A stretch of DNA of 64,000 bases from Escherichia coli (lineage in GTDB: Bacteria > Pseudomonadota > Gammaproteobacteria > Enterobacterales > Enterobacteriaceae): assembly GCF_002854065.1 (NCBI RefSeq), contig NZ_CP024147.1; one strand, 5' to 3'. Positions 11,223 to 17,320 of the stretch are shown one piece after another. Every line of letters starts with the position of its first letter. The first letter of the stretch is position 1. A model generated the notes under the pieces. That model had not been told where the DNA came from. It did not search any database and saw only the letters and a program-made list of their open reading frames with translations. The position numbers were made by a program, and so were the translations under genes.

Positions 11223-14200
11223 TCATGACTGATTAAAGCGAAACAGCGGTAACAGGAAACGTTGCGACTGTTCAACGATTGCCTCCATTGTCTCTGGTGT
11301 TAATTGCCGCCAGAGCCTTTGATACCAGATATCATCACCTTCGCCACGCACCATCATGTTGCCTTCGTAAGCCTGAAGGAATTTCGTACGGGCTTTTTGC
11401 AACGTGGAATCGTCATCCAGCATGGCATCGTTTTGCGCGTCATAACAGGTTTTTAGCCACGCGCCGCCACTTTCAGGTAACACCAGCAATGGCGCGGACA
11501 TCCCTTCACGATACCCCTCAATCAGTTGTGAGAGGTAATGCAAAGCCTGTTCGGCTGCAAGCGGCGGAAAACGCCACTCGCCGTCTTTGCGTAGAAAAAG
11601 GCGACTTTCACCATTACCACCGCTGGCACAGTAGACAAGGTGTTCCAGCCAAAGTTGCATTCCCTGCGCCACACTTAATAAAGAGGGACGCCAGCGCAAC
11701 AAGCCATCCGGCTGCACCTGCGGCAACCAGCCAGTTATCTGCACACCGTTGCAAGCGAGATCAATTTCCATACTCTGCCCCGGCTGGCGACAGGCAATGA
11801 CTCTGTCGGCAAGCTGCTGCATCTCCTGGCACTGTGTTTCCCAGAAAATTTCACCAAAAGCGCCATACGGTAAATCCCCTGCCGCCCGGAAGCGGCGGAA
11901 CAAGCGTTCGGCATCATCCTGCTCAACCAGTGCATTCAATAACTGCTGATTGATTTGATAACGGCTAAGTCCTTCCAGAATAAATGGCTCGGTGTCGGGG
12001 ATTTCGCTGTCTTCAGTACGGAAGTTCACCTGCAAACGCATCTGGAAGAACGCCCGCACCGGATGTGCCCAGAATCGTTGTAGCGTTTCCAGCGGCACGG
12101 TTTCCGGTAAGGTAAACGGCAGCGGCTGAACAAATTCAGAATGTGCTTTACCAGCCTGGCTGGCCGCAGGTAGCCATTCACGAGCATAGCTTTGTCGTTC
12201 GCCTGGCTGGTAGTTTTGCGGATCAAACGGCATCCGGGTATGGAGGCAAGTAAGATGCGCTTTTACCCTTGCCTCGCTTTCATCACAGTTGAGCGCTTCA
12301 TCGCCCGGTAGATAATGACTTTGCCCGATGTAGTCGATCAGTTCCTGCACCAGTACCGACGGGAAACGTTCACTGTTATCCTGAATGGAACGCCCGATAT
12401 AGCTGATATAGAGTTTTTGCTGCGCGGAAATTAACGCTTCCAGGAACAGGTAGCGGTCGTCATCGCGACGGCTACGGTCGCCACGCTTCGGTTTCTGGCT
12501 CATCAGGTCAAAGCCCAATGGCGCAAGCTGACGTGGATAAACGCCGTCGTTCATTCCCAGCAGGCAAACCACTTTGAACGGAATTGAACGCATTGGCATC
12601 AGAGTACAAATGTTAACCGGTCCGGCGAGAAAACGCTGGCTGATACGTTCTTGATCCAGACGCTGTGCCAGTTCATCACGCAATAGTGACAGCGGCACCG
12701 CGTCGCCATACTGCGCACCTAAACCTTCGGCGATAATCGCCTGCCATTGTTGTTCGATCAGCGTCATCGCCGCTTCGGTTTCCGCATCCGGCAGGAAGAA
12801 GGCGTTGAGCATATCGCGACAAACCGGCAACCACTCTTCCAGCGGACGCTCCTGTGCCAGCCCGCGACGCCAGATGTTTAGCTGCATTAGCAGTGAAGCC
12901 AGATGCCCCACCAGTTCTGCAATTAAGCCGCTCGATTCATCATAAGGTAGAACCGATTGCCACTCGCCCTGCGCGCTCTCCATCGCGTAGCCCAACAACA
13001 TACGCGTCAGGCCAAATCGCCAGGTGTGTTGTCCGGTGGCGGGGAGTTCCAGCTCGCGAACGTTGTCGTCATCTATGCCCCAACGAATGCCGGACTCGTT
13101 GGCCCACTGGCGTAAATAACGCAGCCCTTCTTCGGTGATGTCAAACCGCGCCGCCAGCACCGGCACATCCAGCAGCGCCAGCACATCCTCTGACACAAAG
13201 CGACTGTCAGGCAGTGATAACAGGCTGATAAACGCTTCCAGTACCGGATGTGACTGCCGCGCACGACGGTCGGAAATGGCGTAAGGCAGGTAACGATCCG
13301 CAGGTGCGCTACCAAACACTGCCTGAATAAACGGACTGTAGCTGTCGATGTCGGCCACCATCACGATGATGTCGCGCGGAGTAAGTGTCGGGTCTTCCTC
13401 CAGCATCGCCAGCAGGCGATCGTGCAAAACTTCAACTTCACGCTGCGGGCTATGGCAAACGTGGAAGGTGATACTGCTATCCAGTGGATCAAGCGGGCGT
13501 TTGTTATCGCTACGGGAAAAATCTTCGATGTTCACACCAGCAACGGCGCGGTTTTCCAGTTCCAGAATGTCAGACTGAATGTTATGCAGCAGGTTATCTG
13601 GCGTGACATCGACAAAGGCGTCCAGCTCCTGGCTGCTCTCCAGGTCAGAAAGGAGATAAATGTAGTCGCGCCCAAGCTTACCCCATGAAGCCAGCAGCGG
13701 GTTGCCGACATCCTGTTCACCATCGCTGTTAAAGAGCTGCCCGGCATTTTCGCTATCGCGAAATAGCGGCAATTCGCGATCTTCAAAACTGTGTCGACGC
13801 TGACGGGTCAGCAGTTTCGCCAGATAAGCAGGATCTTTAATATCGCCCCAGTAATAACGGCAGGGGTTGGTAAACAGGAGATGGATTTCAATATGTTTAC
13901 CCAGCGCCTGGAGCGCCTGGAGATAAACAGGCGGTAACGCGGAAATACCGCATATAAAGACGCGCGAAGGTAACCCCGGCGGGCAGGTCGTCGCGGACTC
14001 CAGCGTTTCGATAAAGCGCTGATAGAGATTGGCGCGGTGCCAGCGCGGTTGTCCGAGTTCATGTGTATATTCCACCAGCGCCTTCCACAACGGCGCTTGC
14101 CAGGCCTGTGCCTCTCCCAGCCCTTCAACCAAATGTCCTGTTTCCCACTGTGCCAGCCAGTCCGGACGATAGACCAGATACTGGTCAAACAGGTCCGCCG

Positions 14201-14591
14201 CTTTTGAAGAAAGCTGAAACAGTTTTCGCTTGTCGCTATCGTCAGTCAGATAATGCCGCAACAGGGTAAAGTCTTCGCGATCCAGCAATTGCGGCAGCAG
14301 AGTCATCAGTTTCCAGCTCATGCTCTGTTTGTTAAAGGCGCTCTCTTTGGGGATCTCCGGTAACACCCGGACGAACATATCCCAGATAAAGCTCGCAGGC
14401 AGCGGAAAATCAATGTTTGCCGCAATACCAAACTTTTGCGACAGAGTCATTTGCAGCCACTGTGCCATACCGGTACTTTGCACCAGAATCATCTCTGGTT
14501 CGAAAGGATCGTCCAGCCGTTCGCGTTCGACAATAAACTCCATCAACGCTTCCAGCACGTCCAGACGATTGGAATGGTAGACCCTTAACAT
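11223..14591 (-). CDS. recC: Exodeoxyribonuclease V gamma subunit RecC
   Basis: 1122-aa ORF starting MLRVYHSNRLDVLEALMEF; position between ptrA and the ppd genes. Confidence 0.95.
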   Translation of the reverse strand: MLRVYHSNRLDVLEALMEFIVERERLDDPFEPEMILVQSTGMAQWLQMTLSQKFGIAANIDFPLPASFIWDMFVRVLPEIPKESAFNKQSMSWKLMTLLPQLLDREDFTLLRHYLTDDSDKRKLFQLSSKAADLFDQYLVYRPDWLAQWETGHLVEGLGEAQAWQAPLWKALVEYTHELGQPRWHRANLYQRFIETLESATTCPPGLPSRVFICGISALPPVYLQALQALGKHIEIHLLFTNPCRYYWGDIKDPAYLAKLLTRQRRHSFEDRELPLFRDSENAGQLFNSDGEQDVGNPLLASWGKLGRDYIYLLSDLESSQELDAFVDVTPDNLLHNIQSDILELENRAVAGVNIEDFSRSDNKRPLDPLDSSITFHVCHSPQREVEVLHDRLLAMLEEDPTLTPRDIIVMVADIDSYSPFIQAVFGSAPADRYLPYAISDRRARQSHPVLEAFISLLSLPDSRFVSEDVLALLDVPVLAARFDITEEGLRYLRQWANESGIRWGIDDDNVRELELPATGQHTWRFGLTRMLLGYAMESAQGEWQSVLPYDESSGLIAELVGHLASLLMQLNIWRRGLAQERPLEEWLPVCRDMLNAFFLPDAETEAAMTLIEQQWQAIIAEGLGAQYGDAVPLSLLRDELAQRLDQERISQRFLAGPVNICTLMPMRSIPFKVVCLLGMNDGVYPRQLAPLGFDLMSQKPKRGDRSRRDDDRYLFLEALISAQQKLYISYIGRSIQDNSERFPSVLVQELIDYIGQSHYLPGDEALNCDESEARVKAHLTCLHTRMPFDPQNYQPGERQSYAREWLPAASQAGKAHSEFVQPLPFTLPETVPLETLQRFWAHPVRAFFQMRLQVNFRTEDSEIPDTEPFILEGLSRYQINQQLLNALVEQDDAERLFRRFRAAGDLPYGAFGEIFWETQCQEMQQLADRVIACRQPGQSMEIDLACNGVQITGWLPQVQPDGLLRWRPSLLSVAQGMQLWLEHLVYCASGGNGESRLFLRKDGEWRFPPLAAEQALHYLSQLIEGYREGMSAPLLVLPESGGAWLKTCYDAQNDAMLDDDSTLQKARTKFLQAYEGNMMVRGEGDDIWYQRLWRQLTPETMEAIVEQSQRFLLPLFRFNQS

Positions 14592-14603
14592 AGCGGCTCC
14601 TGA

Positions 14604-14927
14604 CTACTGACGATTCGGGCAATGCAGGCGAGTCATCTCGCCTTCTCTGCCCCCGGGTGAAACTAGCGTAACGCTGATGCTGACACATCCCGCCTGCGAT
14701 GTCTGCATTCGGTTGACCTGCCAGTTGGCAGGTGGCGAAATCGCGCGCAGTTGCGTTTGCTGCCAACCATGCCGCCAGAGCTGTTGGTACTGGTTTCTGC
14801 TGGCAAGACTGTTCATTAATGTTCGCTGGAAACCCGATAACGCAGTGACAATCACCACCATCAACACCATCGCCAACATTACCTCCGGCAGGCTAAAGCC
14901 TTGTTGATTCTTCAGGGAAGCTGACAT
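14604..14927 (-). CDS. ppdC: Prepilin-type (type IV pilin-like) protein PpdC
   Basis: Internal ATG at 14927 preceded by AAGAGGG Shine-Dalgarno; product [25 protein letters not shown] has a prepilin leader and G|FSLPE cleavage/methylation motif; 107 aa. Confidence 0.85.
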
Positions 14928-15320
14928 AACGCCGCCCTCTTTCAGCGGACAAAAATCGCTCCAGCCGCATGGCGAAAAAACGATGTTTCCATTGATGACT
15001 TCGCCTGTTCGCCACAACGAAACGCCTTCATAACCGGCAATCAATAAGGCTTCATTATCTGCCAGTAAACGCAAACAAACCCGGGCATCGGTTCCAGCGT
15101 ACTGCGAGCACTGAACTGCTGGCTGCGTCTGCCAGGAGTGCATTTTTCCCCACGCCAGCGCCGACTGAACGATGGCCTGGCGGCGCAATGACTGACTTTC
15201 CATGCTCACGCGAGAGGCAAAACTGCGATCCTGTTGGCTCATTCCTTGTAATAGCAAGCTACCCAAAACCAGCAGCATCAGGACCAGAGCCAGTGACGAA
15301 ACACCCTTTTCGCGGTTCAC
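14928..15320 (-). CDS. ygdB: Putative pseudopilin-operon protein YgdB; here in one continuous frame with ppdC
   Basis: GTG at 15320 overlaps the ppdB TGA (GTGA); product starts [24 protein letters not shown] (hydrophobic N-terminus). No stop codon separates it from the ppdC start in this sequence, so the 3' boundary is uncertain. Confidence 0.55.
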
Positions 15321-15880
15321 AGGTTGAATCCTGTCACGCTATAGCTGGCATTCACCACGGTTTGCGGTTCAGACTTACTGGCAGCACGCATATTAACCGT
15401 CAACACCGGCGAGAAGCCGCTGACATCCTGACGTACGACCTGAAAAGTGTCGATAATGATGGCATCCGGATTAGTGACTTTATCCCAGCCCTTACCTTCA
15501 CAGGATGTCGCACCGCGTAGCGTTTCCAGCACATGCTCCTTCAGACGAAATCCAATCTGGTCGGACTCTTTTACCGGTTCGCGATCCCAGATACCGTTAC
15601 TGTTCGCATCCCACTGCACAATGATACAGTCACCCTGTCCGACAATTTCCAGCCCTTCGCCGGTACAGCTGCCATGACAATAACCCGCCCTCTGGAGATG
15701 CTTCGCGACGGTAAATACCCGCAGCCAGATTTCATCTTCCAGCGCCAGCTTACGGGTGCCCGTTAAACTTTCACGCTGTAACGCAGGCAGAAAGCGTGCC
15801 GCTCCCAGCAACAATACGCTACTGATCGCCATAGCAATCAACACTTCCAGCAGAGAAAAACCTTGCTCTTTTACAGGCAT
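15317..15880 (-). CDS. ppdB: Prepilin-type protein PpdB
   Basis: Internal start [27 protein letters not shown] (prepilin N-terminal motif) inside ORF 15317..16120; 187 aa. Confidence 0.85.
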
Positions 15881-16341
15881 CCTTCTGTTTCTCCTTGCTG
15901 ACAAAGCCGGAGTCTTCCCCACGGCGAAACCACCAGCCACCACTCGCCCGTTGAGTTTTTGAAGCGAATATGCCCGGCCCATGCGGTATTGCGCAGGCCA
16001 AAGAAAGCAAGCGAAGGTGTCAGGTCGCTCATTTCGACTTCGGGCCAGCGTGGCACAAAGACCAATGGTGAACTGCCATGACAGGTATTCGCCCCAGCAA
16101 CGGAACTCACAAGGCACCATAACGTCCCCTCCCTGATAACACTGATACTGTGGTCGCGGTTATGCCAGTTGGCATCTTCACGTAAATAGAGCAAATAGTC
16201 CCGCGCCTGGCTGGCGGTTTGCCATAGCCGTTGCGACTGCTGCCAGTATTGCCAGCCATAGAGTCCACTTGCACTTAGCATGACCAAAATCAGCATCGCG
16301 ACCAGCGTTTCAATCAGCGTATAACCACGTTGTGTTTTCAT
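15871..16341 (-). CDS. ppdA: Prepilin-type protein PpdA
   Basis: Internal start [26 protein letters not shown] (prepilin motif G|YTLIE) inside ORF 15871..16359; 156 aa; overlaps ppdB start by 10 nt. Confidence 0.85.
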
Positions 16342-16525
16342 GCCGGCAGTATGGAGCAAGGAGAAAAAAAGACGAGGGCCAGTTTCTATTTCTTCGGCGC
16401 ATCTTCCGGACTATTTACGCCGTTGCAGGACGTTGCAAAATTTCGGGAAGGTGTCTCGAAGAATTTAATGGAGGGTAAAAAAAACCGACGCACACTGGCG
16501 TCGGCTCTGGCAGGATGTTTCGTAA

Positions 16526-17320
16526 TTAGATAGCCACCGGCGCTTTAATGCCCGGATGTGGATCGTAGCCTTCAATCTCAAAATCTTCGAAACGGTAGTC
16601 GAAGATGGATTCGGGTTTACGTTTGATAATCAACTTCGGCAGCGGACGCGGTTCGCGGCTTAATTGCAGATGAGTTTGATCCATATGATTGCTGTACAGG
16701 TGCGTGTCGCCCCCCGTCCAGACAAAATCGCCCACTTCCAGATCGCACTGCTGCGCCATCATATGCACCAGTAACGCGTAGCTGGCAATGTTAAACGGCA
16801 GGCCGAGGAAGACGTCACAGGAGCGCTGATAAAGCTGACAAGAGAGTTTGCCGTCTGCCACATAGAACTGGAAGAATGCATGGCACGGTGCCAGCGCCAT
16901 TTTATCCAGTTCGCCTACGTTCCACGCTGAAACAATAATGCGGCGCGAATCCGGGTCGTTTTTCAGCTGGTTCAGTACCGTAGTGATCTGGTCAATATGA
17001 CGACCATCCGGCGTTGGCCAGGCGCGCCACTGTTTACCATACACTGGCCCGAGGTCGCCGTTTTCATCGGCCCATTCGTCCCAGATGGTGACATTGTTTT
17101 CGTGTAGATAAGCAATGTTAGTGTCGCCCTGCAAAAACCACAGCAGTTCATGGATGATGGAACGCAGGTGGCAACGTTTAGTTGTCACCAGCGGGAATCC
17201 ATCCTGCAGGTTAAAACGCATCTGATGACCAAAAATGGAAAGCGTTCCGGTTCCGGTACGGTCGTTTTTCTGTGTGCCTTCGTCGAGCACTTTTTGCATC
17301 AGTTCTAAATACTGTTTCAT
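16526..17320 (-). CDS. thyA: Thymidylate synthase
   Basis: 264-aa ORF starting [63 protein letters not shown]. Confidence 0.96.

Follow-up and report, generated by a model that had tools for sequence, protein, structure and literature searches.

A +1 frameshift at the ygdB-ppdC junction in a lineage of Escherichia coli

The minor-pilin locus and its 238-codon reading frame

The window, that is, the whole stretch of 64,000 nt of Escherichia coli DNA analysed here (contig NZ_CP024147.1 of assembly GCF_002854065.1), carries the genes thyA, ppdA-ppdB-ygdB-ppdC and recC in this order, on one strand and with overlapping gene boundaries. The features of the locus are as follows:

15871..16341, minus strand: ppdA, first gene of the ppdA-ppdB-ygdB-ppdC operon, with a 10-nt overlap with ppdB
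15317..15880, minus strand: ppdB, the stop of which shares 4 nt (cctGTGAacc, 15317-15320) with the GTG of ygdB
14604..15320, minus strand: fused ygdB-ppdC open reading frame, GTG start, 238 codons (from the list of open reading frames and the minus-strand sequence of 14400-16600)
14928..15320, minus strand: ygdB-derived part of this frame, 131 codons, with residues 1-128 colinear with YgdB, followed by Gly-Gly-Val
14932..14937, minus strand: site of the frameshift, GGGCGG in the window versus GGGGG in close relatives and GAGGG in K-12
14912..14914, minus strand: ancestral ygdB stop TGA, 14-16 nt inside ppdC, out of frame in the window
14604..14927, minus strand: ppdC, 107 codons, with its own ATG at 14927-14925
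11223..14591, minus strand: recC, starting 13 nt past the ppdC stop

A Pfam scan found the prepilin N-terminal methylation motif in PpdA, PpdB and PpdC, and the families DUF2509 (YgdB) and T2SSppdC; within the single 238-aa product, DUF2509 covers residues 15-128, N_methyl residues 137-161, and T2SSppdC residues 164-235. The overlaps among the four minor-pilin genes amount to 10, 4 and originally 16 nt, and AGGAG is present in the 12-nt gap (14592-14603, minus strand) between ppdC and recC; together, these overlaps and the AGGAG suggest a single, translationally coupled minor-pilin transcript continuing into recC.

In E. coli K-12 the operon encodes the core minor pilins of a type IVa pilus, which are homologous to FimU-PilW-PilX-PilV, to GspH-J-K-I and to comNOPQ of H. 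influenzae. YgdB corresponds to PilX/GspK and PpdC to PilV/GspI; EHEC requires the core minor pilins to assemble its pilus efficiently (PMC7248040). PpdAB-YgdB-PpdC are able to prime PulG pseudopilus assembly (PMC5131608), and for engineered pilus expression the operon is used as a cassette of minor pilins (bioRxiv 10.1101/856302); it is under the control of Sxy and shows synteny with comNOPQ-recC of Pasteurellaceae (PMC12616744).

A sequence-only reading of the window had noted that ygdB and ppdC lie in one uninterrupted frame of 238 codons, that the ygdB GTG overlaps the ppdB stop, and that ppdC nevertheless has its own Shine-Dalgarno sequence and prepilin leader. All of this is borne out: the translation of the fused frame spans the junction ([26 protein letters not shown]) without any stop, the overlap is seen as GTGA (4 nt), and ppdC is preceded by a Shine-Dalgarno-like AGAGGG at 14935-14940, upstream of its ATG, and begins with a prepilin-type leader/N-methylation motif ([15 protein letters not shown]). 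What is lacking is a separate ygdB of about 135 codons, ending in xALCxxP 16 nt inside ppdC; instead, the frame reads through. The same reading left two alternatives, a fusion peculiar to the strain or a reference ygdB of another frame or length, which, by alignment to K-12, both hold and describe the same fact.

Junction alleles and their distribution

The likeness to the K-12 operon is close: both lie at the thyA-recC locus, with the same gene order, overlapping starts and Pfam families, and with a nucleotide identity of about 98.6%. In the reference annotation of K-12 MG1655, ygdB comprises 408 nt (135 aa, the length also given in the sequence-only reading) and shares 16 nt with ppdC, which lies in the -1 frame (ygdB 1631..2038 and ppdC 2023..2346 in the extracted locus). 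The base-by-base comparison proposed in that reading, in search of an indel of 1-2 nt, gave a net gain of 1 nt in the window shortly before the ppdC ATG (nucleotide alignment with K-12, Sakai, XJ34 and GDSC2227PM). The window thus differs from K-12 by an extra base before the ppdC ATG, and its ygdB continues through ppdC with the tail changed to GGV. The tract lies 7-12 nt upstream of the ppdC ATG, and what sets it apart in the window is a C at position 14934, which is a G on the plus strand. The junctions read:

K-12: AAAGA-GAGGG-CGTTATG, ygdB of 135 aa, separate
Sakai, XJ34 and GDSC2227PM: AAAGA-GGGGG-CGTTATG, ygdB of 135 aa, separate
Strain 100416: AAAGA-GGGGGG-CGTTATG, 238-aa fusion
Window and CUWW06: AAAGA-GGGCGG-CGTTATG, same 238-aa fusion as in 100416

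A 951-nt query from the window matched 5,425 of 5,426 complete E. coli genomes, yet nearly all of the matches are 950 nt long. The alleles were counted in the 5,426 complete genomes with junction-spanning queries too short to seed across another allele; genomes outside the five counts carry other SNPs within the junction query:

K-12-type allele: 4,470 genomes
G5 allele: 494 genomes
G4 allele: 20 genomes
G6 allele: 1 genome, strain 100416
GGGCGG allele: 1 genome, CUWW06

The extra base is absent from 5,424 of the 5,426 genomes. The reference is therefore not identical to the window, as it would have been if the 135-aa annotation had been mistaken and the arrangement seen here were the normal one; with the K-12 ygdB being 135 aa long and in another frame, that explanation can be discarded.

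By its structure, ygdB of the window has the form of a frameshifted pseudogene, as it differs from intact orthologues by an indel not divisible by three and has an altered C-terminus. The allele is already in public data and flagged as such: PGAP calls ygdB a "frameshifted" pseudogene in CUWW06 (the equivalent of 14912..15320) and in 100416, and annotates ppdC in both as an intact, separate CDS (WP_032222473.1). CUWW06 (NZ_CP182139.1; ygdB pseudogene ACNHKQ_RS18365) has the GGGCGG junction in common with the window and is 100% identical to it over 25 kb; with no difference between the two, the window comes from CUWW06 itself or from a clone-mate. While the PGAP model for CUWW06 is a pseudogene ygdB plus an intact ppdC, other records list the 238-aa protein (EZJ83808.1, KEO30703.1).

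An extra base in a G tract invites the suspicion that a homopolymer was miscalled during sequencing or assembly and that ygdB and ppdC are truly separate, the more so as some other fused database entries, with several frameshifts, look error-laden (P0054, P0056). Against this, GGGCGG is not a simple change of homopolymer length, and CUWW06 shares the identical junction, as do four independent drafts from NCBI, with 0-1 SNP relative to the window over 3.7 kb. Moreover, the public protein collection has the exact 238-aa protein on 178 contigs, and 250 index blocks (NCBI, ENA, Logan) list it, mostly from contigs of 20-50 kb, typical of short-read drafts. On these grounds the allele of the window is genuine and clonally inherited, and an artefact is hardly conceivable. 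The closest unfused progenitor protein is found on 133 contigs, as compared to the 178 for the fused one, from which it is clear that the fused allele is not strongly deleterious; this wide occurrence fits neutrality of a cryptic system, and it fits retained function as well.

Origin of the extra base at a short G tract

Within 25 kb, the window differs from strain 100416 (G6) by 11 SNPs, one of which is the junction base 14934, and from GDSC2227PM (G5) by 25 SNPs and the junction indel. The most economical history would be that the tract slipped from G5 to G6 in an ancestor shared by 100416 and the window lineage, and that the latter then underwent a G-to-C substitution, which would have changed GGG to GGC, synonymously in the fused frame. 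Such a substitution would interrupt the homopolymer, and reversion by slippage would become less likely. Direct insertion of a C together with an independent G6 in 100416 requires an equal number of events and may account for the junctions as well.

The tract has been struck elsewhere. A G6 fusion also occurs on a different ygdB/ppdC background (P0015; L011, L012) and is of independent origin. Loss of one G yields the G4 allele, whose YgdB has 141 aa with an aberrant tail ending inside ppdC, without fusion; the 20 complete genomes that carry it are O145:H28 and related strains (e.g., L019, NZ_CP007136.1), where PGAP also speaks of "frameshifted". The O145:H28 allele thus resembles that of the window in the mutational hotspot, the label and the clonal inheritance, but is a -1 change that leaves the genes unfused, as opposed to a +1 change that fuses them. 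Fusions of 237 aa (P0046, P0047) arose by a -2 change in the GAGAG repeat of K-12-type strains, and other fused entries (P0048-P0056) stem from frameshifts further upstream, where a T6 run lies; these can give rise to fusions because the ppdC frame has no stop in at least about 70 codons before its ATG. Some of the fused entries, those with several frameshifts (P0054, P0056), resemble products of error-prone assemblies.

Length changes in both directions, +1 in the window lineage and independently in P0015 and L011/L012, and -1 in O145:H28, are what would be expected if the tract were a phase-variable (contingency) switch that toggles ygdB by slipped-strand mispairing. However, the tract has only five G and is interrupted in the window, it is shifted in only 22 of 516 G-tract genomes, which fall into about two clonal groups, and a tract is altogether absent from the 4,470 K-12-type strains. 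A long, uninterrupted repeat whose length often differs among close relatives, as is typical of contingency loci, was not found. Phase variation is therefore very improbable; the tract is a low-rate mutational hotspot and not a switch.

A programmed -1 ribosomal frameshift was considered as well and rejected because no slippery heptamer (X XXY YYZ) is present at the junction of the unshifted alleles, which read CUG AAA GAG GGG GCG UUA or GAG AGG GCG. In the window no shift of the ribosome is needed since the DNA itself is in frame. The 238-codon frame is thus neither a new fusion protein family nor a case of phase variation or recoding; it results from a +1 frameshift in a known gene and is specific to a lineage.

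Predicted products and the fate of YgdB

Homologs of YgdB from Escherichia, Citrobacter, Salmonella and Enterobacter have 133-136 aa and end in [17 protein letters not shown]; in the family alignment, L131, C132 and P135 of the ALCxxP tail are invariant across the four genera. In the fusion of the window the conserved tail xALCQLP is replaced by GGV. In the normal arrangement, the codons of Leu131-Cys132, TTATGY, include the start codon of ppdC (14925-14930, minus strand). The TG of the Cys132 codon TGY is thus also part of the ppdC ATG, so that the conservation seen in the tail is partly forced by dual coding. The argument that an invariant Cys132 proves function was downgraded for the same reason.

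Elsewhere in the protein, residue 118 (14967-14969, minus strand) is Cys in the window lineage and in the unfused relatives XJ34 and GDSC2227PM, and Arg or His in the other sequences from Escherichia, Citrobacter, Salmonella and Enterobacter; Cys118 is a fifth cysteine of YgdB, beside four invariant ones.

Pilin-like proteins insert into the membrane with the N-terminus inside and the C-terminus outside, and prepilin peptidase works at the cytoplasmic face. Ribosomes initiating at the ygdB GTG would read through ppdC and make a chimera of 238 aa, YgdB(1-128)-GGV-prePpdC, which is hydrophobic in two segments (residues 6-24 and 146-164). The leader and hydrophobic helix of PpdC would thereby be placed after the exported periplasmic domain of YgdB, and the helix may act as a stop-transfer segment; this would leave the G|F cleavage site of prepilin peptidase on the periplasmic side and the globular domain of PpdC in the cytoplasm. 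The chimera is thus predicted to have the wrong topology, and because of the presumed inverted insertion of the PpdC helix it would be unable to serve as a normal tip subunit. Given the lost tail and this topology, it is very probable that the chimera does not function as a pilin and that ygdB is effectively a pseudogene.

PpdC itself may fare better. As its Shine-Dalgarno sequence is retained, free PpdC is probably still made from its own start in the fused allele, though without termination-reinitiation coupling to ygdB. Pairing of the Shine-Dalgarno sequence with the anti-Shine-Dalgarno is predicted at -7.3 kcal/mol for the window, compared to -8.3 for K-12 and -11.1 for the G5 progenitor. 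Ribosomes elongating from ygdB may also occlude the ppdC start. A scan of 14400-16650 for promoter and terminator consensus sequences returned nothing above shuffles and thus no sign of an internal ppdC promoter. With 2 mismatches or fewer to the CRP-S consensus TGCGA-N6-TCGCA, 41 sites are present in the whole window, versus a chance expectation of 44, and the interval from thyA to ppdA (16342-16530) has none; the true CRP-S site of this operon, reportedly regulated by Sxy/CRP-S, must be more degenerate than the consensus searched.

The other components that were checked appear to be in order. Among the pilus and DNA-uptake genes of CUWW06 (NZ_CP182139.1; L015-L018), no pseudogene flag is attached to ppdA, ppdB, ppdC, ppdD, hofB (annotated gspE), hofC, hofMNOPQ or gntX, and ygdB is the only broken component among the genes inspected. 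Decay of the whole pilus system in the window lineage was accordingly rejected for the genes checked, their CUWW06 counterparts being free of such flags.

With a carrier lineage that is common (178 contigs versus 133 for the unfused progenitor allele), an intact internal leader and cleavage motif, the remaining pilus and DNA-uptake genes checked in CUWW06 intact, and a tract-interrupting G-to-C change that would stabilize the fused frame, it might be asked whether the fusion is adaptive, either as a functional tandem minor pilin (a covalently linked GspK-like/GspI-like tip module) or as a precursor processed at the internal prepilin site into two working subunits. Yet fusions are sporadic and always a small minority as compared to the thousands of separate ygdB sequences, which in four genera keep to about 135 aa; two pilin-like helices presumably cannot both be N-in/C-out in one chain; the conserved tail of YgdB is gone; and O145:H28 tolerates the non-fusing G4 frameshift (141 aa) equally well, which speaks for plain tolerance of the loss of ygdB. 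An adaptive fusion is therefore quite improbable. Similarly slim are the chances of a related scenario, in which the chimera would be expressed and active in a successful clone, as a tethered variant of the tip module or as a dominant-negative product that stops assembly of the pilus and DNA-uptake machinery, with the G-to-C change locking this state.

The reading preferred here, to which we assign a probability of roughly 0.87, is that the +1 frameshift allele of ygdB in the window is real and clonally inherited, and that its chimeric product is very probably non-functional, leaving ygdB effectively a pseudogene. The fused frame is then a lineage marker, with ygdB frameshifted and ppdC retained, of little relevance beyond correct annotation. 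As to the gene, its 3′ end is a small mutational hotspot, a G tract beside an overlapping gene start that was struck independently in several E. coli lineages. Natural E. coli appear to tolerate the loss of this PilX/GspK-like minor pilin, as would fit a type IV pilus/competence system that in many habitats is cryptic or can be dispensed with.
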